A stretch of DNA of 53,291 nt from Candidatus Giovannonibacteria bacterium RIFCSPHIGHO2_01_FULL_45_24. GTDB taxonomy: Bacteria; Patescibacteriota; Minisyncoccia; UBA11713; 2-01-FULL-45-33. The notes beneath the pieces were generated by a model that was given only the letters and a program-made list of their open reading frames with translations, was not told the DNA's origin and did no database searches. Location: contig MFHE01000010.1 of assembly GCA_001778495.1 (NCBI GenBank), positions 1-53,291 of the forward strand, read 5' to 3'. This document shows, piece after piece, positions 25,651 to 47,818 of this stretch (the first letter of the stretch is position 1; every line of letters starts with the position of its first letter). Both the position numbers and the translations under genes were made by a program.

Positions 25651-25682
25651 AAGTAATTTTTGTAATTATTTACTTGTCAAAT

Positions 25683-26592: not shown

Positions 26593-26612
26593 TTATGCAC
26601 CAATAGGCCGGT

Positions 26613-26621
26613 TGTGGATAA
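26613..26621 (-). promoter_or_regulatory. Perfect DnaA-box 9-mer, 1 nt after the stop of 26623..28881
   Basis: Plus strand tgtggataa. Confidence 0.35.
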
Positions 26622-26622
26622 C

Positions 26623-29733: not shown

Positions 29734-29772
29734 CTTGGAAGCCGGACTTCCAAGTGCATCTTCCAAGTGCAT
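29733..29772 (+). repeat. REP-like hairpin, right flank, plus a 13-nt tandem duplication
   Basis: ACTTGGAAG-CCGGA-CTTCCAAGTGC (29733-29757) starts in the TAA stop codon. CTTCCAAGTGCAT occurs twice (29747-29759, 29760-29772). Confidence 0.9.
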
Positions 29773-31520: not shown

Positions 31521-32847
31521 TTTCTTCCTTTCTCAAGAAAAATAATTGTATCTTCGCGTATTTTCTCCAAATTAGCCGCGGCATCACTTTAGAAAACAGC
31601 TTTGTAGCTTTGACGAACAATATAAAAAATAGCGGCGGGGACTTGCTGTAATAAGGCGTCAGCTCCTCAATGGCCGGGAAAAGAAACAAGCATTCCCGCA
31701 CTTTTAAACTGAACCCGGATTTTTTTAATATACCCAAAGCCCACTCCGGGTCAACAGGATTGAAAGGCGCCACCATCTGCGGCGTCATCACCGGAAAACG
31801 AATTTCTTTTTTGCGGCGCGCCTTGAAACGATGCAAGGGCAAAAAATAAGAAAATTTGTTGCAAATTCCTAAAATCAGCGTTCCGCCCGGTTTTACCAAA
31901 GACGACAAATCTTCCAGCATTTTTTCATGCAAATTTGTTGGATACGCCTCCAAACGAAAAAGACAGGAAACCGCATCGGCTTTACCCTCCGCGCCCGCGA
32001 AATTGTAATTGGCATAACCAATAGAGTTTTCCGGCTTGCCCACGCCGCCGACTCTTTCTATTGAAAAACGCGCCAGTTGGTCCGCGATTTCCAAAATTTT
32101 AAATCTGGCGCGCGGAAAAAGCTTGACCAAGCCCTCCAAATACGCGCCCGTTGACGGCAAAAAATCAATCCATTCCTTCGCGTCCCGCGGCGCGTGAGTT
32201 TTGATTGAATTAAGAACCGCGGCGAATTCTTCGTTAAGATACGGGCGGTATTTCGCGCCGCTCCAGACCCGGAATTCCTGAAATGCCTTTAACTGCTCAA
32301 TCGGCCAATCATCCGGATCCCCGGAAAGCGGCAGGTCGCGGCTGCCGTCGTAGAAATTATTATGCACAAACTCCGCGGGCGATCTGCGCCTGGGAGGAGG
32401 CGGTTTTTTGTCCGGCCAGCCGAACATAACCAAAGCAAGAATCTCGCGCCTTTCCGGTATCTTAAAAATGCTCCGCACAATTTTTTCTTTCCCAACGCTC
32501 GCCGCCCAATAAGCCCCGAGACCGAGACTTTCCGCCGCAAGGACCATATTTTGAATCGCCGCCGCGCCGGATTGGATGTTGGAATGGTATTCCTGGCTGA
32601 ATCGTTTATCGTAAGTAGCCACAAAAAGCACCGGGGCTCTCGCGGCCTCGCCGGCGGATTTGGCCTCATAAACAAGCTTTTGGCGGAGCGCGTGGTCGGT
32701 TACGCGAATCAGCCCCAGAAGCTGCATATTGCAGGAGCTCGGCGCCCAGCTGGCGGCTTCAAGAATTTTTTCAACATATTCCTCCGGCACGGGCTTATCG
32801 GAAAAATGCCGCTGGGTGCGCCGCGATTTAATAATGTCCAAAATCAT
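31495..32847 (-). CDS. Nitroreductase-domain / class I methyltransferase-like fusion protein
   Basis: N-terminus: SRRTQRHFSDKPVP...APSSCNMQ (nitroreductase family). C-terminal half has methyltransferase-like spacing (…KILEIAD…, …GGTLILG…). Confidence 0.65.
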   Translation of the reverse strand: MILDIIKSRRTQRHFSDKPVPEEYVEKILEAASWAPSSCNMQLLGLIRVTDHALRQKLVYEAKSAGEAARAPVLFVATYDKRFSQEYHSNIQSGAAAIQNMVLAAESLGLGAYWAASVGKEKIVRSIFKIPERREILALVMFGWPDKKPPPPRRRSPAEFVHNNFYDGSRDLPLSGDPDDWPIEQLKAFQEFRVWSGAKYRPYLNEEFAAVLNSIKTHAPRDAKEWIDFLPSTGAYLEGLVKLFPRARFKILEIADQLARFSIERVGGVGKPENSIGYANYNFAGAEGKADAVSCLFRLEAYPTNLHEKMLEDLSSLVKPGGTLILGICNKFSYFLPLHRFKARRKKEIRFPVMTPQMVAPFNPVDPEWALGILKKSGFSLKVRECLFLFPAIEELTPYYSKSPPLFFILFVKATKLFSKVMPRLIWRKYAKIQLFFLRKEENGRPSGIS

Positions 32848-34439
32848 TTTAATTTAGAATAGATGTCGTTTCTTAAAAAAAGCAGTTGGTGGTTGATTGC
32901 CGGATAACGGTAAGCAAACGGCGATGGGTACTTTCGGGCAAGCGCGTAGCCCCGAAAGCGCGGGTCACCGGCAATCGCCATGGCCTCTTTGTCAGACTCC
33001 ACCCTCTCTAAAGAAGAACTGGTAATAAAAATCGCCGCCGGATTTTTAGAGTAAAAATAATCTATGCGCTCTTTGGACGATAGCTTGCCGCGCGCCAAAA
33101 CAGGGTCGTTTAGCGCGCCGAAATCAACGGCTTTTATTTTAGAAAAATACGGCACCGCGCCCGCATCCAAATAAATCACCACCCAATCTGTCGGTAATAG
33201 ATTTTTTTGAAGAAACTCGCCAGCTAAATAATGCTGACTCTCTTTTTCGGTTTTTTCATCATTGGCAAAAGTTATTTCATTTTTCAGTTTCGCCGCATTG
33301 AACAAAATTTGATATGAACTTAAGACAAAGAACAAAAATATTGCCAACTTATAACCAAGTTTTTTATTGACTTTAATATAATTAAGAACCGTAAAACCAA
33401 AATTAAATGCGAAAACCAATCCCAGCCACATTGCCGGCATCAGCGAAGTATAAAAACGCTCGGAGAAATTCGTAGTAAGGTGAGAGCGCGCATAAAACAG
33501 CATAAGTAAAGCCGCGAAAGCCGCAATGGGCAGAAAAACGTATAAAATATTGGATTCCCAAAATCCGCCCTCGCGCCTTTTTAGGCGCGCGGAAAACCAG
33601 TCTATTTCCGGCAATACAAGCGCTATGCCTGCCAAAATTGGGAGCGCAAAGTTTCCGCGCAGAAACCTGAACATATCAATTAAAATGTCCACGCTAAACC
33701 CGACGTCGCTTTTTGCGTAATAAGTATTCGGCAAGAAGGCATGATAATAATTTAATCGCCACAAAAAATACACGAGTGCCAGCAGAAAATAAAAAACAGC
33801 GAAACTGCCTATAAAACTTTTTAAGTTCTCGCGCCGCTGTTTAAATTCATAAAGCGCCGCGGCAACTGTAAAAAATCCGGCAAGCGCAACACCCTCCGGC
33901 CGCACCAAACTTGTAAAAAGCAGGGATAAAAACAAAGGCGCGCCTCCCCCGCGCAATAAAAACCGCAATAAGAAATACGACGACGCTAAAATAGAAGCGA
34001 CAAAGAGCATTGTTTCCAGCCCAGAAGAAGCGTGAGTAAATAAAATCGGCGCCGTGCTGTAAAGCAGCAATATAATGCCGAAGACAAATTTGTCAGATTT
34101 CAGCAGTTTCAGCGATAAAAAAAGCATAAGCCACCCTAAAAAGAAAGAAAAAACGCCGATGGCGCGGCTTACATTTATCGGGTCAAAACCGAATCTCATA
34201 AAAACAGCGAGCGCCGCAGGCAAAAATACTCCCGTATATCCCTCAATCGGCGGCTCGCCCACATTCCAGGTAAATTCACTGAACTTCGCTAAATTTTCTG
34301 CGTACCTGAAAGTGATGAAAGCGTCGTCTATGACCCATTTTGGAAAAATCACGAAAACAAAAATCGGGTAAACAACCGAAGCCAGTATTAGAAACGAGGA
34401 AACGACCCTGATAAGCCGGTTCATATTATAACTGTTCAT
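32844..34439 (-). CDS. GT-C-type polytopic membrane glycosyltransferase
   Basis: 531 aa, about 12 TM helices, N-terminal DDAFITFRYAENL motif in the first loop. Confidence 0.68.
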   Translation of the reverse strand: MNSYNMNRLIRVVSSFLILASVVYPIFVFVIFPKWVIDDAFITFRYAENLAKFSEFTWNVGEPPIEGYTGVFLPAALAVFMRFGFDPINVSRAIGVFSFFLGWLMLFLSLKLLKSDKFVFGIILLLYSTAPILFTHASSGLETMLFVASILASSYFLLRFLLRGGGAPLFLSLLFTSLVRPEGVALAGFFTVAAALYEFKQRRENLKSFIGSFAVFYFLLALVYFLWRLNYYHAFLPNTYYAKSDVGFSVDILIDMFRFLRGNFALPILAGIALVLPEIDWFSARLKRREGGFWESNILYVFLPIAAFAALLMLFYARSHLTTNFSERFYTSLMPAMWLGLVFAFNFGFTVLNYIKVNKKLGYKLAIFLFFVLSSYQILFNAAKLKNEITFANDEKTEKESQHYLAGEFLQKNLLPTDWVVIYLDAGAVPYFSKIKAVDFGALNDPVLARGKLSSKERIDYFYSKNPAAIFITSSSLERVESDKEAMAIAGDPRFRGYALARKYPSPFAYRYPAINHQLLFLRNDIYSKLK

Positions 34440-35880
34440 ATATGACGCGCAAAAAATTACTTATATTGTCTTCTCTGCTCAAATCGCTGCATGCTGCGTA
34501 TTCCTGGTCAGTATAACCGCGAAAACTGGCTTTATCAAAGGCAACTAAAAACTTGATTAATTCAGTTTCATCAAATCCGCGCCAAGCTTCAATTTCAGCA
34601 AAAGCCCGGCGGCAAGATTCAGCGCTATCCACCCGGAAAACCCCTGGGCTATTTTGGAACCAAACATGCCCGAAAAGCAAAGCAGGTTTTGACCTCATTA
34701 CTGCTTCCCACGCGGCGGTTCCGGTAACTGCGGCCACCGTTTTAGCATAATGAATCAGCTCAAACGTGTTCGTTCCAATCGGCATTATTCTAGCGTTTTT
34801 CAGGGCAACAATAGATTTATAATAACCCCGCGGGCGATCGTTAAAAAATGCCGGGCCGCGCGGCAACCACTGAAAGGGGTGTTCCTTGACATAAATTAGC
34901 CAATCTTTCGGCAAAGCAGCCGCTAAAATTTCCAGCATTAAAAGCTGGTCTACAAAAACGTCTCCCTGGGTGACAGTGTTCTGCTCTGGTTGTGTGTGAA
35001 GCGGAACATAAACAAAATTCCTGCTGAAATCCGGAGAAGACTGAACTGATAAATATTCTTTTTTCATGTTGGGGCCAATCCTGTTGATAAAAAAACTTAT
35101 GGCTTTTTTGGGCAAAGAAAGGTCTTTGGCGCTACTTGCAATCAGCCGCATCCGTTCTCTAAAAGTATGGGCGGCGCTAAATCTTCCTTCCAAAAAAACA
35201 TTAATTTCCTTATATGTTGCTTCTCTAAAATCCGAAATGTCCTCGGGGCCTTGAGACAACTTTCTGTGTTTAGAATAGTAATCCCGCAAGTCCTCGCTTA
35301 AATTCGCAACACTAAATTTACCCGATTGGTTTTTCCAAGCCTGCGGTTTAAGCAACGGATGTCCCTCTTTAAAATCTTCATAGAGCAGCAGCCGGTCGTT
35401 TACTACCGAAACCTCGACTACCAGCGTTTTAACGTTTCTGCTTTTAGCCAGCGCGTAAATAACGTAATCATAAATGGCGTGCGGCGCGGAAAGAAAAAGA
35501 ATCGCATCCGGGTTATATTTGTCAAATACTCCGCGCCAATACTGCACAATATGATAATATAAATGTTTCCTCTCGTTGATCGCCAAATGGCCGAGCCGCT
35601 TGTTCATCATAGTTAAAACAACCGACTCGGTGCCGTAAAATTGCTGGATTACATCACGTCCGACCGAAGGAAATTCTTCGGCATTAACGCCATGAGCCGG
35701 CTTGCCCGCTATTGCTTCGTAGTGATCGTGAAAAATCGTGCCGGGAAAAGTTTTATAATCCGCTTCTTTGCCAAAATCACAAACCCAATAAACTATCTCG
35801 TGGCCGCTTTCCTGAAGCCGCTTTGCGATTTCTATCATCCCGATTTCCTTACCTGACCATGATATTAAAAATAAACGCAT
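34426..35880 (-). CDS. Capsule-biosynthesis (KpsS/KpsC-like) or sialyltransferase-like GT-B protein; candidate nonulosonate transferase
   Basis: 484 aa with VYVPLHTQPE and VKEHP motifs. Family call is tentative. Confidence 0.5.
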   Translation of the reverse strand: MRLFLISWSGKEIGMIEIAKRLQESGHEIVYWVCDFGKEADYKTFPGTIFHDHYEAIAGKPAHGVNAEEFPSVGRDVIQQFYGTESVVLTMMNKRLGHLAINERKHLYYHIVQYWRGVFDKYNPDAILFLSAPHAIYDYVIYALAKSRNVKTLVVEVSVVNDRLLLYEDFKEGHPLLKPQAWKNQSGKFSVANLSEDLRDYYSKHRKLSQGPEDISDFREATYKEINVFLEGRFSAAHTFRERMRLIASSAKDLSLPKKAISFFINRIGPNMKKEYLSVQSSPDFSRNFVYVPLHTQPEQNTVTQGDVFVDQLLMLEILAAALPKDWLIYVKEHPFQWLPRGPAFFNDRPRGYYKSIVALKNARIMPIGTNTFELIHYAKTVAAVTGTAAWEAVMRSKPALLFGHVWFQNSPGVFRVDSAESCRRAFAEIEAWRGFDETELIKFLVAFDKASFRGYTDQEYAACSDLSREDNISNFLRVIYEQL

Positions 35881-35884
35881 ACCG

Positions 35885-37687
35885 TTATTTTTTAGCGTGA
35901 TAAACTCTAAAAAAATAAGAATTCTGATTCGCTAAAAGCTCGCGGGGGCTCCCCTCTTCCAAAATCCTGCCATTATCTAAAACTATAAGCCTATCGGCTG
36001 AAACAACTGTAGAGAGTCTGTGGGCTATAGTAAAAACCGTAACCCGCCCCCGCAAATTTTCAATGGCCTTTTGAATTAAAATTTCGGACTCGTTATCTAA
36101 AGAACTGGTAGCCTCATCCAAGAGTAAAATTTCAGGATGCCTAGCCAAAACTCTGGCCAAAACTACGCGCTGACGCTGACCCACCGAAAGCTGAATGCCA
36201 CGCTCGCCCACCAATGTTTTGAACTTTTCTGGCAAAGACTCAATAAAATCAAAAATATTGGCCATGCGAGCGGCTTCTATCATATCGGCATCAGTCACGC
36301 TCTCGCCGTAAAATTTTATATTATTTTCAATAGTGCCATTCATTAAAAAAATGTCTTGGGAAACATAGCCAATATTGGTTCGCCATTCCCTAAGCTTAAT
36401 GTTATAAATATCAACTCCGTCCAAAGTAATCGTGCCTCTTTGCGGGTCCAGAAGGCGCAACATAAGGTCAACAATAGTTGTTTTGCCAACGCCCGAAGGT
36501 CCGATAAGCCCCGTCGTCTCCCCTTTTTTAATGAAAAAATTGACTCTCTTAAGTACTGGTCCGTAAGAGGCGCCGTAAGCAAAATGCACATTGTTAAACC
36601 GCAAACAATCCCGGAAATTAAAATTGCGCTTGCCTAAATCCTTTTCTTTGCGCCCCAATATTTCATTCTCATATTGCATCGCCCCCCGCAAATAAGGTTC
36701 GTAAGAAATTACGGAGTGAAAAAAAGATTGCCCCTGCTGCGCTTGGGTAAAAATTTTATTAATAGCATAGACAATGACCGCAAACGAAGCCATATTAAAA
36801 CTTTGATCCGATCTGTAAAAATAAAGGAACGCTGCCATTATAAAAAAAAGACCAATGGGCTGAATAAGCGTATTGGTTAATATAGACGCCAAAGTAATTC
36901 TCACATTAAGCTCTTTCAGCCGATCGAAGTAGCTGTTGGCGCGCTCTACAATTTTATCTTTGACTTCAATGGATTTAATTGTTTTGACGCCCAAAAGGCT
37001 CTCGTTTACAAAATGCGCCACATCCTTAAAAACCACGCTCATCTCTGAAGATGCGGCTTCATTTTTTTTAAAAAAGGGCTTAAAAACATAAAAAGACGAT
37101 AGTGCCAAAACAAATGCCGCAAAAGCAATAATGGCGGATATATTGACAGCCAAAATAATGTAAATCAAAAGATTAGCGGTCACAATAATCAAACTGCTGA
37201 CATGAGAGAAAAGAGCGGAGCTGTTATTGATATAAGTTGTTAAAATCTGATCCAAGTAACCCAGTTTATGTTTCGTAAGATACGGCCAGTCTGCAAAAAA
37301 AGTTTGACTAAAAAGTAAGTTGCGCTTTCTGCGGGCAAATTCCGAGACTGTTTTTGCCGCAATGAAACTGGCCATGAAAAAAACGATGGTTTTTATCACA
37401 AAAATTGTTATAATAAACAAAATCAAATACTGCAAATTAAACGGCAGAATAAAATAATTAAAAAATTTCTCAATCATTCGTGAAACAATATCGGCGCCCT
37501 GTGCTCCATTTTTAAGAAAAGAAAAAAGAGGAATAACGGCATTTATGCCGATGCCCTCCAAAACACTGCTTAAAAAACTCAAAAGCGTGAAAGCGACAAC
37601 AGCCCACTTAAATTCGCCGAAGGCTTCGCCGAATAATCTGAATAAACCGAAAATCTTTTTACCGGCACTTTGCATTACAACCATCAA
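35885..37687 (-). CDS. ABC exporter, fused TMD-NBD (MsbA/lipid or glycan flippase type)
   Basis: 600 aa. Six-TM domain, Walker A GPSGVGKTT, signature LSVGQRQRVVLAR, Walker B LLLDEATSSLD. Confidence 0.9.
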   Translation of the reverse strand: MMVVMQSAGKKIFGLFRLFGEAFGEFKWAVVAFTLLSFLSSVLEGIGINAVIPLFSFLKNGAQGADIVSRMIEKFFNYFILPFNLQYLILFIITIFVIKTIVFFMASFIAAKTVSEFARRKRNLLFSQTFFADWPYLTKHKLGYLDQILTTYINNSSALFSHVSSLIIVTANLLIYIILAVNISAIIAFAAFVLALSSFYVFKPFFKKNEAASSEMSVVFKDVAHFVNESLLGVKTIKSIEVKDKIVERANSYFDRLKELNVRITLASILTNTLIQPIGLFFIMAAFLYFYRSDQSFNMASFAVIVYAINKIFTQAQQGQSFFHSVISYEPYLRGAMQYENEILGRKEKDLGKRNFNFRDCLRFNNVHFAYGASYGPVLKRVNFFIKKGETTGLIGPSGVGKTTIVDLMLRLLDPQRGTITLDGVDIYNIKLREWRTNIGYVSQDIFLMNGTIENNIKFYGESVTDADMIEAARMANIFDFIESLPEKFKTLVGERGIQLSVGQRQRVVLARVLARHPEILLLDEATSSLDNESEILIQKAIENLRGRVTVFTIAHRLSTVVSADRLIVLDNGRILEEGSPRELLANQNSYFFRVYHAKK

Positions 37688-38727
37688 ATTTGGTGTGAAT
37701 CTGCTTCTTTGATCAGCGCCGAAAGGCGATCCTCGGAAAGTTTGGGCGCAAATTCCGAAGAAAAACTTTTATTCCCTGCGGCTATCAACTTTGCCGGATA
37801 CTTTTCTTTGTATTCTTCCCCCACAACCTTTTCGTGCGGAGTCAAAATATACATATCCTTGGTCTCAAACGCCCGCGGCAGTTCATGGTCGGCCAGCAAT
37901 TTTTCATGTATTTTCTCGCCGGCTCTTCTGCCGACTATTTTAATTTTAATTTCCGAAGATTTTTTCCCGAACATGGGCGCGTAATGCTTCACGGCAGCTT
38001 TTGCCAAATCGGCCAAGCGCACAGCTGGCATCTTTAAAACAAAAACTTCCTGCCCGCGCATTAGGTTCGTCGCGGAGAGCACCAAGCTTGCCGCCTGCGG
38101 TATGGTCATCACAAACCTTGTCATTTTAGGATTAGTAATAGAAACGGCGCCGTTATTTTTAATCTGTTTTTTAAAAAGCGGCAAGATGCTCCCCCGGCTG
38201 CCCAAAACGTTGCCGAAGCGCACGCAAGCAAATTTTGTTTTCCGGTCACCTTTGTAATAAAAAGAGGATAAAAATAATTTCTCCGCCATAAGTTTGGAAA
38301 CGCCCAGGATGCCTTCCGGCTCGGCAACTTTGTCGGTGGAAATGCCGACCACTTTTCCTATATTTAAGTCCCGCGCGACGTCTATGACGTTCTGCGTGCC
38401 CACGATGTTCGTTTTCACGACTTCAAAAGGGTTGTATTCGCACATCTCAACCTGCTTGAGCGCGGCGGCGTGAAAAACAATGTCCACTCCTTCCATGGCC
38501 ATGCGCAAGCGGTCTTTATCGCGAATATCTCCGATAACGAATCTTAAGTGGTCGTTTTCGTGGTTGTACCCCAGATCATTCATTAAAGTGTAATGCCTGT
38601 CTTCGTGGCGCGCGAAAACGCGGATGCTTCTCGGGCTGAAATTCAAAAGCTGGCGGACGATTTCTGAACCAATTGAGCCTGTGCCGCCCGTGACCAAAAT
38701 ATTTTTATTTTTAAATTCGCTCTGCAT
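37684..38727 (-). CDS. UDP-GlcNAc 4,6-dehydratase family (PseB/LegB/CapD, Polysacc_synt_2)
   Basis: VTGGTGSIGSE, ISTDKVAEPEGILGVSKLMAEK, RFGNVLGSRGSILPLF. Confidence 0.85.
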   Translation of the reverse strand: MQSEFKNKNILVTGGTGSIGSEIVRQLLNFSPRSIRVFARHEDRHYTLMNDLGYNHENDHLRFVIGDIRDKDRLRMAMEGVDIVFHAAALKQVEMCEYNPFEVVKTNIVGTQNVIDVARDLNIGKVVGISTDKVAEPEGILGVSKLMAEKLFLSSFYYKGDRKTKFACVRFGNVLGSRGSILPLFKKQIKNNGAVSITNPKMTRFVMTIPQAASLVLSATNLMRGQEVFVLKMPAVRLADLAKAAVKHYAPMFGKKSSEIKIKIVGRRAGEKIHEKLLADHELPRAFETKDMYILTPHEKVVGEEYKEKYPAKLIAAGNKSFSSEFAPKLSEDRLSALIKEADSHQI

Positions 38728-39670
38728 TTTTTAAATATTGGCCATTAGAATAAATGGCGTTTTTTGGGTCGCGAACCCTGCCGGCCGTGATAAGCTGGTA
38801 AATTTCCCGCACGCCGTCTTCCAAACTATATCGCGGCTTCCATCCGTATGACATAAACTTTGCCGAAGAAACTTTATAATTTCTCAAGTCTTCAAATGTG
38901 ACATTATCGTGTTCAACTTTTGCATCGGGGATTATCTTTTTTATTGTATCCGCGATTTCAGAAACCTTGTAGTTCTTAGCGCTTAAATTAAATAGGCCGT
39001 TCAGGTTATTTTTTATTCCAAACAATATTCCATCCGCAGCGTCTTTGACGTGCATGAGCGGCCTCCATTGCTCGCCGCCGAAAACCGTCAAAATCTCATT
39101 AGCGGCAGCTCTTTGGGTCAGCAGATTAACGGCGAGATCAAATCTCAACCGCGCGTGCCTGTCTCCTGCGCCAAAAAGAGTGCCGAGCCGGAATATGAGA
39201 TAGTCGTTCGAACGTGCCATAATTTCTTTTTCTGCTTTCAGCTTGGTTACAGCGTAATGCGACAATGGCTTGACCTCCGACGATTCATCCAGTAAGCCGT
39301 CGTTTTTCCCGTAAACAGAGCAGGTAGAAGTATAAACTATTTTGCCCTTATAATTTCTGGTAAACCACTGAACGGCGGAGAGATTAATTTCTCTGGCAGC
39401 AGTAGGATTAATTGCGCACGCCTCATCCCCGACTATCGCCGCCAGCCAAATGACAATGTCAAAGTTGTTTATAATCCGGCCCAATTTTTCTTTATCGCGG
39501 ATATCGCCATAAATAAAATTTATATTTTTTAAGTAGCGATCTTCGTAGATAAGATTATCATAAATGGCAACGTCGCATCCTTTTTCCATAAGCAAATCGG
39601 CGAGATGTCCGCCAACATAGCCCGCACCACCGCAAATCAGCACTTTAGTTGTATTTTTTGACGGCATCAA
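38711..39670 (-). CDS. NAD-dependent sugar epimerase/dehydratase (SDR)
   Basis: VLICGGAGYVGGHL Rossmann motif and YAVTKLKAE catalytic YxxxK. Confidence 0.82.
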   Translation of the reverse strand: MMPSKNTTKVLICGGAGYVGGHLADLLMEKGCDVAIYDNLIYEDRYLKNINFIYGDIRDKEKLGRIINNFDIVIWLAAIVGDEACAINPTAAREINLSAVQWFTRNYKGKIVYTSTCSVYGKNDGLLDESSEVKPLSHYAVTKLKAEKEIMARSNDYLIFRLGTLFGAGDRHARLRFDLAVNLLTQRAAANEILTVFGGEQWRPLMHVKDAADGILFGIKNNLNGLFNLSAKNYKVSEIADTIKKIIPDAKVEHDNVTFEDLRNYKVSSAKFMSYGWKPRYSLEDGVREIYQLITAGRVRDPKNAIYSNGQYLKNAERI

Positions 39671-40763
39671 TAACTTTATTAGATATATATTTAATGTCCG
39701 GCCTCTTAAGCCCGACGTAAAACGGCAGGGCCAGCGTGCTTGCGCTCACGGTTTCAGAGATCGGATAGTCGCCGGGTTTAAATCCAAACCTGCTTCTGTA
39801 AAAACTGAAAAGGTGGATTGAAGGCAGATACGGCTTTGTCGCGATGCCCTGTTTTTGAAGGTCAAGCATGACTCTGTCGCGGTTGATATTTCTATTTTTG
39901 ATGCGGACAACGTAAACCTGCCATGTGTGGGTGTTGTGCGGATGAGTTTGAGGAGTTTGAATCAAATCTCCGTGCGGAGCCAAAAATTCATGATACCAGT
40001 CGGCAATGCTGCGCTCGCGCAAAAGAAAATCAATATTTTCAATCTGCGCAAGGCCGACGGCCGCGCTCATCTCATCCATCCGGTAGTTATAACCAAGGCG
40101 ATTATGGTCCAGCCACTGCATATTTTCGGCTCTGCCCTGATTGCGCAAACTCCTGCAAAGCCCGTAAATCCTTTTATTGCTGGTCACGATAACTCCGCCT
40201 TCGCCGGTAGTCATCTGCTTGTTCGCGTAAAAAGCGAAAACCGCCGACTCGCCGAATGTGCCCGCCATGCGGCCTTTATAGGTCGCACCCAGCGATTCGC
40301 AGGCGTCTTCTATTATTTTCAAATTGTATTTTCTGGCGATTTTTAAAATAGGAGCCATTTCCGCCGGCTGGCCGAAGATATGCACGACCAAAATCGCCTT
40401 TGTTCTTTTGGTTATCGCGCGCTCAATTTTTTGGGGGTCAATATTGTAAGTTAAAGGGTCAATATCTGCAAAAATCGGTTTTGCGCCGACATACAAAATC
40501 GCGTTAGCGGAAGCCACAAAGGAAAACGGCGTGGTTATCACTTCGTCGCCAGGGCCAATGCCAGCCGCAATCATAGCGAGATGCAGCCCCGCCGTGCCGG
40601 AGGAAACCGCGCAGGCGTATTTCGCTCCGATAAACTTCGCAAACTTATTTTCAAAGCGCTCCTGCTTTTTGCCCAAGCTTAAAATGCCGGAATTTAAAAC
40701 TTCCAGCACGTATTTCTTCTCCCGATCCGTAATATAAGGCTTGGCGCTAGGATAGCGTTTCAC
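39645..40763 (-). CDS. DegT/DnrJ/EryC1-type PLP sugar aminotransferase (PseC/LegC-like)
   Basis: 372 aa with ...FYANKQMTTGEGG... Lys motif. Confidence 0.9.
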   Translation of the reverse strand: MKRYPSAKPYITDREKKYVLEVLNSGILSLGKKQERFENKFAKFIGAKYACAVSSGTAGLHLAMIAAGIGPGDEVITTPFSFVASANAILYVGAKPIFADIDPLTYNIDPQKIERAITKRTKAILVVHIFGQPAEMAPILKIARKYNLKIIEDACESLGATYKGRMAGTFGESAVFAFYANKQMTTGEGGVIVTSNKRIYGLCRSLRNQGRAENMQWLDHNRLGYNYRMDEMSAAVGLAQIENIDFLLRERSIADWYHEFLAPHGDLIQTPQTHPHNTHTWQVYVVRIKNRNINRDRVMLDLQKQGIATKPYLPSIHLFSFYRSRFGFKPGDYPISETVSASTLALPFYVGLKRPDIKYISNKVIDAVKKYN

Positions 40764-40782
40764 TAAATATAAAACCCCCAGG

Positions 40783-41205
40783 TTAGTCTCGGGGTTTCTT
40801 GGGCAATTTTCTCAAAACCCTTGCGGGAACGCCGGCGGCAATTACATTGGACGGCAAGTTCTTATTTACAAAGCTGTGCGCGCCGACAATGGTATTTTCT
40901 CCGATTGTCACTCCGGGCATCACGGAGCTGTGGGTTCCGATGCGGCAGTTTTTTTTAAGAACGATTTTCCCTTTTTTATTGTCAATCGTAGAGTAAGAAT
41001 ACAAAGAGCAATGCGACCCTATCTGTACTTCATCTTCTATTTCCACGCCGTGCTTTGCCACTATTAAAGTGTACGCGCCGATGTCAGTGTTTTTGCCGAG
41101 TTTCAAACCTTCCGGATAGAGCACATTCCAATTATATTTAGTGGGCTTCCCGTGCACAATTTTCGGCGCCTTCCAATTTTTGAATCTTGCTTTAGTTCTA
41201 GACAT
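40783..41205 (-). CDS. Left-handed beta-helix (hexapeptide) acetyltransferase
   Basis: 140 aa with hexapeptide repeats (IGSHCSL..., IGTHSSV..., IGENTIVGAHSFV). Confidence 0.8.
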   Translation of the reverse strand: MSRTKARFKNWKAPKIVHGKPTKYNWNVLYPEGLKLGKNTDIGAYTLIVAKHGVEIEDEVQIGSHCSLYSYSTIDNKKGKIVLKKNCRIGTHSSVMPGVTIGENTIVGAHSFVNKNLPSNVIAAGVPARVLRKLPKKPRD

Positions 41206-41225
41206 ATCGTCCTCATTAGCTAACC

Positions 41226-42281
41226 CTAGTTAGAAAACATTTCCTCGCTAATCAGAGTTTCGGCTGGGATGTCTGACTTAGCCGTTTTGCCGATAATTTT
41301 ATTGAGATATTTTGGCAGCATGCCGGTTCCCGGGCGCTTGATGTCCAGATTTTCGCTGGTGAATTTTTCGCCCTTTTTAATGTCACGGGCGGCCACAATG
41401 CTTTTTCTCGCAACCGTCACGTATTGGCGCTCGGCCGGAAGAAGCTCTTTTGTGCCGCTGCCCATCATTAGCGGCACCTGCTTTACCATCGCAACCATTT
41501 CTTTAAATTCTTTTGGTTCAGTGGAGGCAATATGGTCAGGCCCATTCATTTTTCTATCCAAAGTAAAGTGCTTTTCTATCATGCAGGCGCCAAGGGCAAC
41601 TGCCGCAATGGCGGCTTGCGGCCCTACGGTATGGTCGGAATACCCCACAAGCGCGCCGAGTTCTTTCATCAAGGTCTGCATCGCGCTCAAGTTTACATTC
41701 TCCGGCGCAAGCGGATAATCGGTCGTGCAATGAAAAACCAATATCTGGTCGTTGCCTGCGCCTTTTATCGTCTCAACTGCTTCTTTTGTTTCCTCTAAAT
41801 TGGACATACCGGTTGATATAAGCATTGGTTTCCCGAACTTCGCCGCGTATTCCAAAAGCGGCAAATTGGTGAGGTCGCCCGAGCCGAATTTAAACGCGGG
41901 GACGTTGTAGGACTGAAGCAAGTCAACGGATTCCTTGCCGCCGTGCGGCGTGGAAATAAAAATTATATTTTTTTCTTTGGCCAGTTTAATCAGCGCCTGG
42001 TACCAGTCCTCTTTTAACTCCAATTTCCTCAACATCTCCAGCTGGCTTTCTTCGGCGCCAATGTTCTTTTTCTGATAATCAGCCATCTTGCCCGCTCCAG
42101 TCACAACCTGCTCGGCGCGGAAAGTCTGGAATTTCACCGCGTCCGCGCCCGCGTTTGACGCGGCGTCAATCAGCTTTATCGCCAAATCAAAATCGCCGCT
42201 GTGATTTACTCCGGCTTCGGCGATAACAAACGGCGGATTGCCGTAATTTACTTTATAGCCGCCGATAACCAGGTCTTTCAT
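41226..42281 (-). CDS. neuB: Nonulosonic acid synthase (NeuB/LegI/PseI family) with C-terminal SAF domain
   Basis: 351 aa. PPFVIAEAGVNHSGD, ADAVKFQTF, MISTGMS, HCTTDYP. Confidence 0.9.
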   Translation of the reverse strand: MKDLVIGGYKVNYGNPPFVIAEAGVNHSGDFDLAIKLIDAASNAGADAVKFQTFRAEQVVTGAGKMADYQKKNIGAEESQLEMLRKLELKEDWYQALIKLAKEKNIIFISTPHGGKESVDLLQSYNVPAFKFGSGDLTNLPLLEYAAKFGKPMLISTGMSNLEETKEAVETIKGAGNDQILVFHCTTDYPLAPENVNLSAMQTLMKELGALVGYSDHTVGPQAAIAAVALGACMIEKHFTLDRKMNGPDHIASTEPKEFKEMVAMVKQVPLMMGSGTKELLPAERQYVTVARKSIVAARDIKKGEKFTSENLDIKRPGTGMLPKYLNKIIGKTAKSDIPAETLISEEMFSN

Positions 42282-42283
42282 TT

Positions 42284-43426
42284 TTAGTAAGCGATTTGCT
42301 TAGTCAATAATTTCTGGTTAATTTCCAAATCCTCCAAAATCTTGGCGACTCGCTGGCCGGTTTTGCCGTCTCCCCAAGGGTTTTTTATTTTTTTAAACCC
42401 GGCAAGATACTTTTTATCGTACAAAGATTTTGCTATTGCTTTTTTGATTTCAGCGCGGCTGTAGCCAACATCTATAACATTGCCCCCGCGCTGGCGGCCC
42501 CGTTGTCGCGCGCCTATATTTACCACCGGCGTCTTAAAAGAAGATGACTCGATCATTGCGGCGCTTGAATTCCCAACCCAGACCGCAGCTTCCCGCTCCA
42601 GCGCCAGAAAATCTTTATGCCCCAAGCCTTTAAATATCCTGAATAGCGGATTTTTCCTTTCTTTCTCAATGACTTTAATAATTTCTCTGCCGCCGGGGTC
42701 GGCATTCGGGTAAATCGCCACAACGGACAACCCGAAAGATTTTACCGCGGCCAGAGTTTCTTTTATCTGCCTGCCAGCGTCATTAAACTCCTCGTTAACC
42801 GAGTACTGGGTTATCAAAATAATTTTTTCTTCAGGATTAAGCCCCAGCTTTTTAAAAAGTTCCGCGCGGGTCGGCAATTTCTCGTTTAAAATCACGTCCA
42901 GCGCCGGAGCGCCGACAATATGTGTTCTACATGGCTCCTCACCCATTTTTCTGATTCGCTCCGCTGATTCTTTTGTGGCCGCAAAATGTATATGCGCAAT
43001 TTTGGTAATAGCATGCCTCGCGACTTCGTCCACAGTTAAAGTTTTTTCTCCGCCGTGGATATGAGCTACTGGAACGCCGAGATAAAGCGCCGCGGCTGCC
43101 GTAAGCAGCATCTCAACCCTGTCTCCCAAAATCAAAACGATGTCGGGCATCCGTTTTTCAAAAATCGCCGCGATTTTCTTTAAAAAATCTCCGGCAAATC
43201 GTGCCATGCCAGTTCGGTCGTCTGAACTGAAAATCGCCGGAACGGCGAGCGCGGCCGGAAATTGTTTTTTGACTTCGTCAAAAGTCCTGCCGAATCTCGG
43301 CATCAAATGCATGCCGGTTGCGTAGAGCTCCAGCTTCAATTTTCTGCTTTTTTGAATGGCGCGCAAAACCGGCGTCATCAGCCCGAAGTCCGCCCGCGTC
43401 CCGGAAACATAGGCGATTTTTCTCAT
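42284..43426 (-). CDS. neuC: Hydrolysing UDP-N-acetylhexosamine 2-epimerase (NeuC/LegG family)
   Basis: 380 aa. MRKIAYVSGTRADFGLM, VLILGDRVE, AHIHGGE. Confidence 0.88.
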   Translation of the reverse strand: MRKIAYVSGTRADFGLMTPVLRAIQKSRKLKLELYATGMHLMPRFGRTFDEVKKQFPAALAVPAIFSSDDRTGMARFAGDFLKKIAAIFEKRMPDIVLILGDRVEMLLTAAAALYLGVPVAHIHGGEKTLTVDEVARHAITKIAHIHFAATKESAERIRKMGEEPCRTHIVGAPALDVILNEKLPTRAELFKKLGLNPEEKIILITQYSVNEEFNDAGRQIKETLAAVKSFGLSVVAIYPNADPGGREIIKVIEKERKNPLFRIFKGLGHKDFLALEREAAVWVGNSSAAMIESSSFKTPVVNIGARQRGRQRGGNVIDVGYSRAEIKKAIAKSLYDKKYLAGFKKIKNPWGDGKTGQRVAKILEDLEINQKLLTKQIAY

Positions 43427-43485: not shown

Positions 43486-44280
43486 ATGAAAATAACCGTA
43501 TTCACAAGCAATCAAGCGCGCCACATCTCCTTAATAGAAGATTTGGCGAAAATTGCCGACGAGGTTTACGCAGTAATAGAGTCCTTTACCGTTTTCACAG
43601 GCGAGGTAGCCGATTTTTATAATAAAACGGAAATAATGCAAAAATATTTTAGGAGTGCGGTTATTGAACCGGAAAGGCAAATTTTCGACGCGCCAAGGTT
43701 TTTACCAAAAAATGTGCGGGCGATGGTTCTCAAAGCCAGTGATTTAAGTTTATTGCCAATGGAGTTTTTGAAAGATGCACTGTATTCGGACAGATATATT
43801 GTCTTTGGATCAAGCTACATAAAAGGTCCGCTGGTTGAGTTTTTAGTCAAAAACAGAACGTACAATATACACATTGGAACCTCGCCTTATTACCGAGGAA
43901 ACTCCTGCAATTTTTGGGCTGCATATCATGGAAACTTTGATTACGTTGGCGCAACAATTCATCTTTTAAGCCGTGGCTTAGACTCGGGGGATATGCTTTT
44001 TCACGCATTCCCGGAGCAGATCGGCGATCCTCTTTTGCTCGGCATGAAAGCGGTAAAAGCCGCCCACAAAGGTTTAATTGAAAACATCAAAAACGGCAAG
44101 ATTGATAAAATGACACCCGTGCCGCAGGATAAATCTTCGCAGATAAAATATTCAAGAGGCGCGGATTTCACCGATGAGGTGGCGCGGGACTATCTGGAGA
44201 ATTTGCCCGCGCCAGAAACGGTTTTGGAAAAATTAAAAAACCGCGACCTCTCCAAATTTTTAAATCCGTATATTGGATAA
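43486..44280 (+). CDS. Formyltransferase-family protein (PurN/Fmt N-terminal-domain type)
   Basis: 264 aa. YNIHIGTSPYYRGNS (N-x-H...RG) and LDSGDMLF (Asp). Confidence 0.6.
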   Translation: MKITVFTSNQARHISLIEDLAKIADEVYAVIESFTVFTGEVADFYNKTEIMQKYFRSAVIEPERQIFDAPRFLPKNVRAMVLKASDLSLLPMEFLKDALYSDRYIVFGSSYIKGPLVEFLVKNRTYNIHIGTSPYYRGNSCNFWAAYHGNFDYVGATIHLLSRGLDSGDMLFHAFPEQIGDPLLLGMKAVKAAHKGLIENIKNGKIDKMTPVPQDKSSQIKYSRGADFTDEVARDYLENLPAPETVLEKLKNRDLSKFLNPYIG

Positions 44281-44493: not shown

Positions 44494-45438
44494 TCACATT
44501 TCCATCATCTTTACAATATTGGCGTGGTCTTCTCTAGCCATTTCAAAAGCGTTGGCGTTAATCGCCCCCATTTTTGTTTTTGGAAACATATTTGAACGAA
44601 AACCGCAAATAACCCCGAGCTTTCTCAAAATCTTCAACGTGTTCTTATTATAAGAATTCACCGGATGCGCTACGGCAGCCGGGTTTTGGCCGGTGGCTCG
44701 TTTTATATGCGAGTAATTTTTTTTATACTCGTCAAATTGCTCTTTAAAAGACAAATCCGCAAGCGACGTTGGATGAGAATAAGAATGCAGCCCTATAACG
44801 TGTCCGCTGTCGTTAAGATATTTTAAATCTTTATTGGACATCCATAAGCTCTTTGACATCTCTTTTTTATTCAGACCACGGTCCTTTAAAATGGCATCCA
44901 TTATTTTTTCATAATTATCTTTCCTTAAGACCTTATCGCGCAAAAAACGGAATCGGACATCGTTTGCGGAATAAAACGGGAAGTCTGCCAGCATTTTCTT
45001 CTCAACTTCCGGGTCTGCCTCCGTGGCAATTCCGAATTCAGAAACTTTTTTAAAAAATAATTGATAAAAATCATCTATGTTATCAAAATATTTTACCCGG
45101 AAAAATCTATAGAGCTCCAAATTCTCCAGTCTTCCTTCAAAAACGCCGGAGTAGACAAACCAGAAAGCTTTAAGGCCGTATTTCTCCAGCACAGGCAAAG
45201 CGATCTCTGTTTGGCATAAAAGCGCGTCGTCGAAAGTCAGGCAAACATCCCCGTTCTTTAATTTATTTTCTTTCAACCTTTTTAACCACTCGAGCGGCGG
45301 CAAAATTCTTTCGAGACCGATGTAATGCAATAGATCATTGAGGTCGTCGGCGGAAATGGCGCCTTGCCCCCATGGATGCGCTTCATTGTAAAAGTGATGG
45401 AACATAATTCCATGCGGAATTTTTTTTGGATACGCCAT
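44494..45438 (-). CDS. Polysaccharide deacetylase (NodB-homology) family protein
   Basis: Track ORF trimmed to MAYPKKIP (ATG at 45438). CLTFDDAL and GLHSYSHP motifs present. Confidence 0.8.
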   Translation of the reverse strand: MAYPKKIPHGIMFHHFYNEAHPWGQGAISADDLNDLLHYIGLERILPPLEWLKRLKENKLKNGDVCLTFDDALLCQTEIALPVLEKYGLKAFWFVYSGVFEGRLENLELYRFFRVKYFDNIDDFYQLFFKKVSEFGIATEADPEVEKKMLADFPFYSANDVRFRFLRDKVLRKDNYEKIMDAILKDRGLNKKEMSKSLWMSNKDLKYLNDSGHVIGLHSYSHPTSLADLSFKEQFDEYKKNYSHIKRATGQNPAAVAHPVNSYNKNTLKILRKLGVICGFRSNMFPKTKMGAINANAFEMAREDHANIVKMMEM

Positions 45439-45443
45439 AGATT

Positions 45444-46577
45444 TTAACCAAAATAGCTTTCCAGCTTGCTTTCTCTGACCGTGTCCAGTGTGCTGCAATG
45501 GATGCCGCCCATGTAATAAGAATGCCTGAATCGAATAGGGACCGGGGTAATTTTATGTTTTTTTAAAAGATTAATTAAAGGAACCTGCCACTCATCAACA
45601 ATTACCGTATTCAGATCCACCGAAAGTATGTTCATGCCAATCCAATCCGATGCCATAGAATCAAGACTAGATTGAATGCCCAGAGACGCAAGCTCTTTGT
45701 GAACCTTTTTGCGAACGTCTTTGTGAAATTTTACGGTTGATTCCGGCGCAGGAACAATATCCGTGAAATAAATTTTCTCCCATGAATTTAAAACCGAGGG
45801 ACAAGTCTCCGGCGACACCCTTGTTGCATTAAGCAAAACCAGCCCAGGGCGAAGAGCCAAAACGGTTGAGTCAATATGGCTTGAGCGGTAAATTTTTTCA
45901 GTCGTATGAACCCGATATTCATTGCCCAGAACGCTTTGAAGCCATTTTGCGCCGAGATTATTGCCGGATCTGGATACAAGATAAAGCAAATCTTTGCCCA
46001 TTCTCACTGTATTGGCGGCCTCAAAAAGGATTTCGTCTTCGGTTAATTTTATAAATTTCTGCCCGTCTTCATACTCATTTTTTTCGCCATCATAGTAAAT
46101 AATCATGTGATTACCGGCAAGTCTCGGCTTCGGCCCGGCAATCCAGCGAAACCCTTCTTTGAAATATTCATACCAAATATCATACAGACCAAAAGCCTCA
46201 AAATATCTGTGCTTTTCTTGAGACGGCGACTCAATAACGGTATTTCCGACCACAAGATGAAGATCTCTCATATTGTAACAATAGTCGCCCGCAGCCCGGA
46301 AATAAGGCGTGGCAAAAAAACTGTTTACATGCGATGTTTCCGGCCGATATACTTTTATACCAAATGATTTGAGCGTGTTGCTCAACCCCTCTAAATCTTC
46401 ATTTATTTCATCAATCAACCATTTAGGCGACGCTTCGCGCGCCAAGCGGTTTGCTTTTTTCAAGAGATCCTCCGAAATCTGTCCGGGCGCCGTAAACAAA
46501 AGCGGCGCTTGTCCCTCCCCGCGGCCCACAACAATTTCCCGAAGCTTGTCCCATTCATTATGGCTGTTAATTTTCAT
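45444..46577 (-). CDS. Amidinotransferase-family protein (glycine/inosamine amidinotransferase-like)
   Basis: Track ORF trimmed to MKINSHNEWDKLREIVVG (ATG at 46577). SSHIDST and C-terminal GGIHCSTLD catalytic-Cys motif present. Confidence 0.75.
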   Translation of the reverse strand: MKINSHNEWDKLREIVVGRGEGQAPLLFTAPGQISEDLLKKANRLAREASPKWLIDEINEDLEGLSNTLKSFGIKVYRPETSHVNSFFATPYFRAAGDYCYNMRDLHLVVGNTVIESPSQEKHRYFEAFGLYDIWYEYFKEGFRWIAGPKPRLAGNHMIIYYDGEKNEYEDGQKFIKLTEDEILFEAANTVRMGKDLLYLVSRSGNNLGAKWLQSVLGNEYRVHTTEKIYRSSHIDSTVLALRPGLVLLNATRVSPETCPSVLNSWEKIYFTDIVPAPESTVKFHKDVRKKVHKELASLGIQSSLDSMASDWIGMNILSVDLNTVIVDEWQVPLINLLKKHKITPVPIRFRHSYYMGGIHCSTLDTVRESKLESYFG

Positions 46578-46585: not shown

Positions 46586-47818
46586 TTAACGATTCTCTAT
46601 TGGTTTGTAAGCGATGAAATCCGCGTGGCGCACGCCGCAAGCGCCCTTAAAAAGAACTTCTGTTTTTTCGATAAACTTGCGCAGTTTCTTCAAGTCAGAT
46701 GTATAAACCAAGCTAACAAATTCGTCGGCTTCCCCAAGAGCTCGCAGGAGTTTCTCGCGAAGGGGCTGGAGAAAATTCAGCGCGTCGGACGACTTTGCCA
46801 ACGCGCGCGATAATTCTTGAAAACGGCCGGCATCGAGCTTGGTATTTTTATTGAAGTTCGCCACATATGATGTAATGTTTGCAAGCGCCGCCGCAAGCGG
46901 ATTCAGCCCGCTCATGAATTTGGGGAAGGCCTTGCTATCCGATTCTGTCTGCAACATCCATACCAATTCAGTAAGCGCGCCAAGATTAGCCAGATTAGAT
47001 ACCGATGCCGCATCAAACTTTGGCTGGTGATGCTGCGAATCCCCGCGAAGCGGCACGGCAAATAGAGGATATGACGAATACAAGCGCAAACCGCCACTCT
47101 TCATCCAACCCACAACTTCCGCAACCGAAGAGTCGTCCTGGGATTGAATCACCCATCTGTCAAAAATGATGGCGCGGCGCGTGCGAGGAATAAACTTCTC
47201 ACTGCGGTCAATGTCTTCTTTAAAAAGAAATTCGCAAACTTTCACCATTTCGTCTGGTGTTGAAGCAAAATGATAGACGGCGAAACGCTGCAGCATGTTC
47301 TGGAATCCCCCAGCTTTATTCGGGTCTCCGAAAATCAAAAATCCGCCCGGTTTGACCATCCTCGCGATTTTTTGGAAAGCAGCTTCCTTTGCCGCGGTAT
47401 GCGAGAGAACAGCCCTGCAATGAACAATGTCGTACAGCTTGCCGCTCTCCGGGCTATAATCAAAGATTGATGAACAAATAAAAGTGTGGTCGTCAAAATT
47501 CCGCGCGTATTTTTTAAACACCTCTTTTGAGATGCTCTGCGCTTTGGGATTCATTTCAACAAGCGTGCATTTGGCGCCCCAGCTTGCAAGATACACGGTA
47601 TTTTCCCCCGTTCCCGCCCCGAAGTCTATGAGTTCCGCGCCGCGAAACATTTGCGGAGGGAATTTGAACAGCTCTCTGTAAACAAATTCGGCGTTCCTTA
47701 CATAATCCCTATACGCGGCTTTATTTTTGTGGGAAAAGTATTGCGAAGGAATTTCTTCCTGAAAAGTCTTGAGGGTCTCGCTTTCTGTTTTCTTAATCTT
47801 GCCTTTATTGAGAATCAT
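46586..47818 (-). CDS. Class I SAM-dependent methyltransferase with a long C-terminal helical extension
   Basis: LIDFGAGTGENT motif I. Confidence 0.75.
   Translation of the reverse strand: MILNKGKIKKTESETLKTFQEEIPSQYFSHKNKAAYRDYVRNAEFVYRELFKFPPQMFRGAELIDFGAGTGENTVYLASWGAKCTLVEMNPKAQSISKEVFKKYARNFDDHTFICSSIFDYSPESGKLYDIVHCRAVLSHTAAKEAAFQKIARMVKPGGFLIFGDPNKAGGFQNMLQRFAVYHFASTPDEMVKVCEFLFKEDIDRSEKFIPRTRRAIIFDRWVIQSQDDSSVAEVVGWMKSGGLRLYSSYPLFAVPLRGDSQHHQPKFDAASVSNLANLGALTELVWMLQTESDSKAFPKFMSGLNPLAAALANITSYVANFNKNTKLDAGRFQELSRALAKSSDALNFLQPLREKLLRALGEADEFVSLVYTSDLKKLRKFIEKTEVLFKGACGVRHADFIAYKPIENR

Follow-up and report, generated by a model that had tools for sequence, protein, structure and literature searches.

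A probable legionaminic-acid-type nonulosonic acid pathway within a surface-glycan locus of a Candidatus Giovannonibacteria genome

Bacteria belonging to the candidate phyla radiation (CPR), i.e., the Patescibacteria, possess very small genomes and are believed to live on host cells, to which they are attached, and little is known of their surface chemistry. Which sugar, then, might be the product of six consecutive minus-strand genes that are found (37684-43426) in one such genome, that of Candidatus Giovannonibacteria bacterium RIFCSPHIGHO2_01_FULL_45_24 (assembly GCA_001778495.1)? These genes lie within what is described here as the window, that is, the whole of the 53,291-nucleotide stretch that was analyzed, which takes in the first 53 kb of a contig of 154 kb (MFHE01000010.1). 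In combination with a cytidylyltransferase gene, they would probably make up a pathway to cytidine monophosphate (CMP)-legionaminic acid of the uridine diphosphate (UDP) type, with legionaminic acid being a 5,7-diamino-3,5,7,9-tetradeoxy nonulosonic acid. An earlier reading of this same DNA, referred to here as the original prediction, had favored a legionaminic-acid-like, di-N-acyl product over N-acetylneuraminic acid (Neu5Ac) or pseudaminic acid. That preference is supported by the type of 2-epimerase present (NeuC), by the lack of PseG, by the genomic context of the NeuC clade, and by a leucine found in the dehydratase.

Gene identities were assigned using Pfam, the curated cut-offs of NCBIfam, and sequence matches to entries in the PDB, with scores given in bits throughout. 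All six open reading frames (ORFs) are present in the ORF list with exactly the boundaries that had been predicted, and the six identities proposed for them, as well as that of the CMP-synthetase (51639-52364), are backed by Pfam and NCBIfam domain assignments. Beginning with the NeuC gene (at 43426) and going down to an ORF of 582 codons at 29772, there are in fact eleven minus-strand genes, with spacings of -26 to +20 bp. These read as one tightly packed, co-directional block (29772-43426) of which the six genes are the upstream half, and the six in turn are the core of a glycan locus of about 35 kb.

The genome itself had been described as CPR-like, and this is borne out by the assembly, which is of Candidatus Giovannonibacteria and consists of 531,142 bp in 14 contigs (89.8% complete, 0.62% contamination). 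A sister genome from the same genus, G419, is a single closed contig of 651,549 bp, and carries the same cluster with the same gene order at 75-95% protein identity (89% for NeuB). As the cluster is collinear in that sister genome, the locus is therefore native rather than an artefact of binning. Three further genera of the family retain the core gene order as well, as do three loci from other CPR genomes. A DNA search with the NeuB-NeuC region against Escherichia coli genomes gave no match.

It is the hydrolysing nucleotide-sugar 2-epimerase, of NeuC/LegG type, from which much of the argument proceeds (42284-43426, minus strand; 380 residues, Epimerase_2). This protein scores 392.7 bits on TIGR03568, i.e., above a cut-off of 235.9, and its best PDB relative, at 205 bits, is 5ZLR, the Acinetobacter baumannii 2-epimerase that hydrolyses guanosine diphosphate (GDP)- or UDP-linked di-N-acetyl-bacillosamine; the epimerase domain of human GNE reaches 172. 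Identity is 32% to the NeuC of E. coli K1 (the K1 neuB and neuC reference sequences were taken from UTI89), and is 54-85% to CPR homologues. An alignment scan for NeuC covered 185,579 species genomes, from which the nearest 80 relatives were used. Closest among these 80, at 54-66%, are sequences from other CPR groups, that is, Yanofsky-, Davies-, Falkow-, Roizman-, and Peregrinibacteria, and next nearest are those of archaea, Clostridium, Bacteroidia, and Dehalococcoidia. Of the 80 NeuC genes, 73 have a NeuB gene within 10 kb, 63 a DegT aminotransferase, and 40 a Polysacc_synt_2 dehydratase, with several of the loci that are without such a dehydratase possessing instead a more distant short-chain dehydrogenase/reductase (SDR) along with a LegC-like aminotransferase.

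Within a NeuC tree of 90 sequences, in which gene-context labels stand in for characterized enzymes, the protein of the window is found inside a CPR-only clade of 23 (100 by SH-aLRT, a likelihood-ratio branch test), and most loci of that clade have both the dehydratase and the aminotransferase. A separate Rhodospirillaceae clade has neither, and K1 NeuC is a distant, long branch. Phylogenetic placement of NeuC and NeuB had been suggested as a check on the original prediction, and the two differ in what they offer. NeuC favors legionaminic acid, given a clade with dehydratase-plus-aminotransferase context, the distance to K1 NeuC, and a best solved match that is of LegG type, but the tree of NeuB is poorly resolved.

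The first enzyme of the pathway would be a nucleoside diphosphate (NDP)-N-acetylglucosamine (GlcNAc) 4,6-dehydratase of the short, SpsM/CapE/Pen-type form (37684-38727, minus strand; 347 residues, Polysacc_synt_2 with E 4.6e-102). On the PseB model this protein scores 318 bits, which is below the cut-off of 407.75, and its motif, T131-D132-K133...L141...K145, has a leucine where PseB has its catalytic tyrosine, Tyr141. Among Polysacc_synt_2-type dehydratases of NeuC-containing loci, this position is occupied by methionine or leucine in 44 and by tyrosine in two, and tyrosine is what is seen in Helicobacter pylori PseB and in the A. baumannii enzyme from a pseudaminic acid (Pse) locus. Bacillus subtilis SpsM, which catalyzes the first step of a UDP-linked route to legionaminic acid, has a methionine in the same motif, and an spsM deletion is complemented by the retaining enzyme PglF, or by Pen plus Pal, though not by PseB (PMC7439481). 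Because the leucine resembles the methionine of the SpsM motif, and because of this pattern of complementation, an SpsM-like role for the dehydratase would seem more likely than one that is PseB-like. As an aside, methionine or leucine versus tyrosine at this position may serve as a marker distinguishing first enzymes of the legionaminic acid (Leg) type from those of the Pse type.

The remaining enzymes are consistent with such a start. The nonulosonic acid synthase is of the NeuB family and has a C-terminal SAF domain (41226-42281, minus strand; 351 residues, Pfam NeuB plus SAF). It scores 437.7 bits on TIGR03569, above the cut-off of 399.65, and 304.9 on the PseI model, below that model's cut-off of 340.25; among solved structures the order is SpsE (221), Neisseria meningitidis NeuB (213), and PseI (189), and identity to the synthase of the A. 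baumannii Pse locus is 35%. The sugar 4-aminotransferase is a pyridoxal-phosphate enzyme of the DegT family (39645-40763, minus strand; 372 residues, DegT_DnrJ_EryC1, PF01041, E 8.4e-121). It scores 310 bits on the PseC and 296 on the LegC model, each below its own cut-off, with a perosamine synthetase as the best PDB match (287), ahead of PglE (185) and PseC (170). The acetyltransferase (40783-41205, minus strand; 140 residues, Hexapep) is a minimal left-handed beta-helix N-acetyltransferase that covers only positions 86-202 of the 202 in the NeuD/PglB/VioB model, i.e., it is without the N-terminal domain of PglD and NeuD. Its homologues, 57-72% identical, are present at 38 of the 80 nearest NeuC loci. 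The CMP-nonulosonate synthetase, that is, the cytidylyltransferase, is on the minus strand as well (241 residues, CTP_transf_3 with E 1.9e-26), and scores 173 bits on the PseF model, for which the cut-off is 205.7. All of the enzyme types of a Leg pathway are thus at hand, namely a dehydratase, an aminotransferase plus N-acetyltransferase, a hydrolysing 2-epimerase, a NeuB synthase, and a cytidylyltransferase. A Pse pathway would call instead for PseG, which as TIGR03590 has no match in this genome nor in closed G419, and for a PseI-type synthase, for which the score is too low.

The chemical steps, and with them nucleotide carrier, stereochemistry, and glycan target, are inferred from these identities, and would run as follows. 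The SpsM/CapE-like dehydratase would convert NDP-GlcNAc to an NDP-4-keto-6-deoxy-N-acetylhexosamine, to which the DegT aminotransferase would supply a 4-amino group. That amino group would be N-acetylated by the short hexapeptide transferase. NeuC would then both remove the nucleotide and epimerize at C2, with the resulting 2,4-diacetamido-2,4,6-trideoxy-hexose condensed with phosphoenolpyruvate (PEP) by NeuB. Finally, the product would be activated with cytidine triphosphate by the cytidylyltransferase. The family to which the dehydratase belongs suggests that the carrier is UDP rather than GDP.

Six enzyme types of this same sort make up the UDP-linked CMP-legionaminic acid pathway of B. subtilis, i.e., SpsM, SpsC, SpsD, SpsG, and SpsE, along with SpsF (PMC7439481). 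The likeness extends to a short CapE/PseB-like dehydratase with a non-tyrosine residue in T-x9-[M/L]-x3-K and to a NeuB whose best solved relative is SpsE. The differences are that here the residue is leucine rather than methionine, there is an extra SDR resembling Cj1427, the acetyltransferase is reduced to its beta-helix, and all the genes form one operon with genes for tailoring and export. Shared with the Leg loci of Campylobacter jejuni, Plesiomonas shigelloides, and A. baumannii (LegB/C/H/G/I/F plus PtmA/E/F; lgaA-F) are a NeuC-type hydrolysing 2-epimerase, a NeuB-type synthase, and a cytidylyltransferase beside an oxidoreductase of about 330 residues, as LegF is beside PtmF. Unlike those loci, however, there is here no dehydratase of LegB type (52-75 bits on TIGR04180), and neither the PtmE nucleotidyltransferase nor a PtmA-like short-chain dehydrogenase was seen in the cluster.

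What of the sixth gene, the extra SDR? Encoded at 38711-39670 (minus strand), this is an extended SDR of 319 residues (Epimerase family, with GGAGYVG and Y139-x3-K), resembling Cj1427 as a nucleotide-sugar C4 oxidoreductase. That is, it aligns over its full length, at 171.5 bits and with Y-x3-K kept, with 6VO6, the Cj1427 GDP-heptose C4-dehydrogenase of C. jejuni. The original prediction had placed an SDR epimerase in the core pathway, a placement which does not hold up, as genomes G412 and G414, representing two other genera of the family, lack the gene in clusters that are otherwise syntenic, and as its nearest solved relative is this C4-dehydrogenase. It is concluded instead that the SDR would be a nucleotide-sugar C4 oxidoreductase which has been recruited as a genus-specific accessory. 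A role as Pal-like partner to a Pen-like dehydratase was considered too and is disfavored, with Pal scoring 67 bits versus the much higher score of Cj1427, and with dehydratases that carry the same leucine working in related genera without any SDR.

Homologues of this SDR are found elsewhere in the phylum as well. The best within a 400-genome sample is 57% identical and occurs in genome G279, in a different nonulosonic acid cluster (C2:107791-118385), which includes along with it an ORF of 135 codons, an acetyltransferase (63%), an aminotransferase (65%), a NeuB-like gene, two cytidylyltransferase-like genes, and BFO_1060-like glycosyltransferases. Neither a Polysacc_synt_2 dehydratase nor a NeuC is present in that cluster. 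More distant SDR homologues are followed by a gene for a small RmlC-like cupin.

The rival to CMP-legionaminic acid which survives best makes use of the very same genes, with the product being some other stereoisomer of a 5,7-diamino nonulosonic acid, e.g., 8-epi-legionaminic acid. This could come about should a PseB/Pen-like dehydratase invert C5, or should the Cj1427-like SDR re-oxidize or epimerize an intermediate ahead of NeuC and NeuB. The dehydratase is indeed nearer in PDB matches to Pen (6BWC, 277 bits) and to inverting PseB (H. pylori, 2GN4, 235) than to retaining PglF (173), and Pen and Pal together give rise to two 4-keto products (PMC7439481). The SDR, furthermore, is intact, its gene overlaps those of both dehydratase and aminotransferase, and of all the proteins of the cluster it is the one best conserved between this genome and G419 (95% identical). 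Still, replacement of the tyrosine by leucine or methionine fits SpsM, for which it is retaining PglF, not PseB, that substitutes functionally, and related clusters with a 72-77% identical dehydratase, including those of G412 and G414 with the same leucine, do entirely without the SDR. A different stereoisomer seems, on balance, unlikely.

Less probable by a good margin of plausibility, and indeed rather doubtful, is that two pathways share the operon. NeuC, NeuB, and the cytidylyltransferase would in that case produce CMP-Neu5Ac from UDP-GlcNAc, with the dehydratase, SDR, aminotransferase, and acetyltransferase producing a separate sugar, either of di-N-acetyl-bacillosamine type or a 6-deoxy-hexosamine, to serve as the first sugar for an initiating transferase of the Bac_transf family. 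In favor of this, the NeuB scores above the equivalog cut-off of NeuB_NnaB and shares 44% identity with its E. coli K1 counterpart, a PglC-like Bac_transf gene is present 15 kb away, and the SDR could represent a 4-reductase branch. TIGR03569, however, covers legionaminic acid synthases as well, the NeuC is far from that of K1 and closest among solved enzymes to one acting on di-N-acetyl-bacillosamine, and co-location of this clade's NeuC with a dehydratase and an aminotransferase recurs across many unrelated lineages, whereas NeuC homologues lacking such neighbors form a clade of their own. Against a pathway to Neu5Ac only, tight operon linkage and conserved co-location likewise argue that NeuC and NeuB are not independent of the other genes. 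As for pseudaminic acid, that product is very improbable indeed, for although the dehydratase, aminotransferase, and cytidylyltransferase find their best models in PseB, PseC, and PseF, all three fall below the curated cut-offs, the synthase passes the cut-off of NeuB rather than that of PseI, a hydrolysing 2-epimerase stands in place of PseG, and the dehydratase is without the catalytic tyrosine of PseB.

There nonetheless are points that weigh against legionaminic acid as the product. The NeuB tree, in which experimentally defined Neu5Ac and Pse references number just one each, comes with long-branch warnings and does not set the synthase of the window cleanly apart from that of K1. What the dehydratase step does at C5 does not show in the sequence, and the product could be altered by the extra SDR. 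Doubt about the nucleotide carrier comes from the aminotransferase, which among solved enzymes is nearest to a GDP-perosamine synthetase rather than to PglE. The dehydratase, aminotransferase, and cytidylyltransferase, moreover, fall short of the equivalog cut-offs for PseB, PseC, LegC, and PseF. Lastly, precursor supply is unexplained, as enzymes expected to provide for it were not found. That UDP-GlcNAc and PEP are consumed in this genus follows from the presence of MurA in both of its genomes. GlmS, though, was not found in the genus, closed genome included, though two other genera of the family have it, and GlmM was not found above its cut-off in this genome, the only one searched for it. 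A search for GlmU as a source of UDP-GlcNAc, a check that had been proposed along with the original prediction, found no full-length version in the genus but only a nucleotidyltransferase of 228-257 residues. Enolase, pyruvate phosphate dikinase, and PEP synthase likewise were not found in the genus, closed G419 included, in a search that did not extend to PEP carboxykinase or transporters. The lack of GlmS, as also of hisD, fits a picture of minimal biosynthesis, and the apparent lack of GlmS, enolase, pyruvate phosphate dikinase, and PEP synthase raises the question of what it is that the genus takes from its host.

A nine-carbon sugar pathway had been supposed to be a heavy investment for so minimal an organism. 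It turns out instead to be ordinary for the lineage, as 17 of the family's 20 species genomes, this one included, have NeuB-family genes. The original prediction further suggested mimicry by a surface, pilus, or S-layer glycan in keeping with an episymbiotic life, a conjecture to which these data lend no direct support. NeuB orthologues at 67-89% identity occur in 6 of the other 19 species, and many genomes have a second, more distant paralogue. Within an even sample of the phylum, a NeuB-family gene is found in 52 of 401 genomes, all at no more than 50% identity. Because a synthase is present in nearly every species of the family, acidic nine-carbon sugars probably are a standard part of the envelopes of these bacteria. 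NCBI already annotates the NeuB of relatives as N-acetylneuraminate synthase, and a literature search found no paper joining nonulosonic, legionaminic, or pseudaminic acid with Patescibacteria or with the candidate phyla radiation. Of 39 papers mentioning sialic acid along with Patescibacteria, the 12 that were listed deal with other subjects. This Giovannonibacteria lineage devotes about 35 kb, out of some 0.6 Mb in all, to a probable sialic-acid-like surface glycan. The core pathway, that is, is an ordinary new example of one that is already known, and common in the lineage, with the unusual part being the genes for tailoring.

Those tailoring genes were passed over by the original prediction, among them an acetamidino trio (from 52380) and an amidinotransferase. 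The trio begins with an N-acetyl sugar amidotransferase of the WbuX family (52380-53291, minus strand), of which the C-terminal 303 of 424 codons are in the window, with the gene extending to contig position 53654; its score on TIGR03573 is 388.4 bits versus a cut-off of 203.2. It is preceded by genes for a HisH-like protein (HisH, 199 bits) and a HisF/WbuZ-like protein (HisF, 300; WbuZ, 274), taking the trio to contig position 55004. Because hisD was not found in the genus, and because the HisH and HisF genes are directly upstream of the WbuX gene, these three are best read as a putative acetamidino-forming trio. For the same reasons, histidine biosynthesis was rejected as the function of the HisH and HisF genes. 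Known acetamidino systems (WbuX/WbuY/WbuZ; PseA; Leg5Am7Ac of Legionella pneumophila) share the WbuX-family protein and its HisH/HisF-like partners, here located directly upstream of the cytidylyltransferase gene. Unlike in those systems, the trio here coexists with a second amidino-transfer enzyme, one that is arginine-dependent.

That second enzyme, a StrB1/AGAT-type amidinotransferase of 377-398 residues (45444-46577, or to 46640, minus strand), has no match in the Pfam or NCBIfam libraries and was identified by PDB and ESM Atlas searches. It aligns with StrB1 (1BWD) at 233.7 bits (E 2.8e-68) over its full length, HIDST and GGIHCSTLD motifs included, and a profile of its homologues matches SxtG at 433 bits, with C361, H234, and D236 invariant in 38 homologues. 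It thus shares with StrB1, AGAT, and SxtG a full-length alignment (234 bits for StrB1) and the catalytic histidine plus the cysteine motif GG-x-HC-x-TLD. It differs from all three in that its gene lies within a nonulosonic acid cluster, where the neighbors on either side encode a polysaccharide deacetylase (44494-45498, minus strand; Pfam) and a methyltransferase of 410 residues (46586-47818, minus strand; Pfam). This deacetylase-amidinotransferase-methyltransferase trio recurs in nonulosonic acid loci L069, L082, and L145, as well as in G419, with the amidinotransferase seen in just one of a further 400 genomes sampled from the phylum. No paper tying amidinotransferases to nonulosonic acids was found in a literature search.

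Tailoring of the N-acyl groups would probably be the work of the acetamidino trio, the deacetylase-amidinotransferase-methyltransferase cassette, a formyltransferase-like protein, and a sulfotransferase. It may tentatively be suggested, as one possibility, that the cassette changes an N-acetyl to a guanidino group, possibly N-methylated, with the acetamidino trio acting on the other nitrogen, the two together giving rise to a cationic nonulosonic acid derivative. Such a derivative was not found described in the literature search, and further variation may come from the Cj1427-like SDR that is specific to the genus. The amidinotransferase, acetamidino trio, sulfotransferase, and formyltransferase-like protein in any event lead to specific predictions for surveys, by mass spectrometry, of the nonulosonic acids of groundwater or enrichment samples.

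The formyltransferase-like gene (43486-44280, plus strand) is divergent, beginning 59 bp from the start of NeuC. Its match to Formyl_trans_N, at 24.7 bits, is just below the cut-off of 26.1, and its product is 91% identical in G419; annotated formyltransferase genes are found beside neuB as well in Halorussus and in Azospirillum plasmid loci. The sulfotransferase (50430-51638, minus strand; Pfam Sulfotransfer_3) sits between the cytidylyltransferase gene and a Gfo/Idh/MocA gene. It is absent from otherwise collinear G419, has a local GC content of about 0.40, and looks like a recent gain.

Also in this region are a second S-adenosylmethionine-dependent methyltransferase of 246 residues (47815-48555, minus strand; Pfam), which is 94% identical in G419, and two Gfo/Idh/MocA oxidoreductases of 330 and 297 residues (48558-50433, minus strand; Pfam). 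Linkage of the latter is conserved in relatives, where they adjoin the cytidylyltransferase gene too, and a Halorussus locus has the same arrangement. In Plesiomonas, PtmF is a 326-residue oxidoreductase adjoining LegF (PMC4481668), and the pair seen here beside the cytidylyltransferase recalls, by analogy, the PtmF of Leg loci.

Continuing downstream from the dehydratase, the next gene of the block encodes an ATP-binding cassette (ABC) exporter or flippase, a half-transporter of MsbA/PglK/HepA type (35885-37687, minus strand; ABC_membrane plus ABC_tran), with scores of 339 bits for the HepA family, 309 for MsbA, and 214 for PglK, all below their own cut-offs. There then is a KpsC/KpsS-like protein (34426-35880, minus strand), a candidate nonulosonate transferase, which matches Capsule_synth (PF05159) at 23.6 bits, the cut-off being 20, and more weakly, at 18 bits, the BFO_1060 glycosyltransferase. 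The placement of this gene after the ABC gene is conserved in G412, G414, G415, and L082. Three minus-strand genes end the block (29772-34439), encoding proteins of 531 residues, of 450 residues with a nitroreductase domain, and of 582 residues without a family. The 531-residue protein has a weak match to the LA_3751/2 glycosyltransferase, and all three genes are conserved in G419 and G412.

Beyond the block, at 20787-28881, are genes which by Pfam encode an SDR epimerase, the Bac_transf initiating transferase, a GT4 glycosyltransferase, and a Wzy_C-TPR protein, and which G415 and G419 likewise keep close to the cluster. The last of these is a fusion of 752 residues (26623-28881, minus strand), of the O-antigen ligase, polymerase, or O-oligosaccharyltransferase type, making it a candidate for attachment of the glycan to its target. 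Assembly of the activated sugar into a lipid-linked surface glycan would fall to the Bac_transf protein together with the glycosyltransferases, the KpsC/S-like proteins, the ABC exporter, and the Wzy_C-TPR protein. A comparable system is the protein O-glycosylation of Tannerella forsythia, with its terminal Pse or Leg derivatives (PMC5420450), which shares with this locus a nonulosonic acid module plus glycosyltransferases, methyltransferases, and a flippase. Matches here to the nonulosonate transferase family of Tannerella BFO_1060, however, are weak, at 18-27 bits, which is far below the cut-off of 200.

The glycan locus carries on past the end of the window, and at contig positions 55613-62119 there are a second Capsule_synth/BFO_1060-like protein, an FkbM methyltransferase, a further GT4 glycosyltransferase, two hexapeptide transferases, a NUDIX-GNAT fusion, and a C-methyltransferase.

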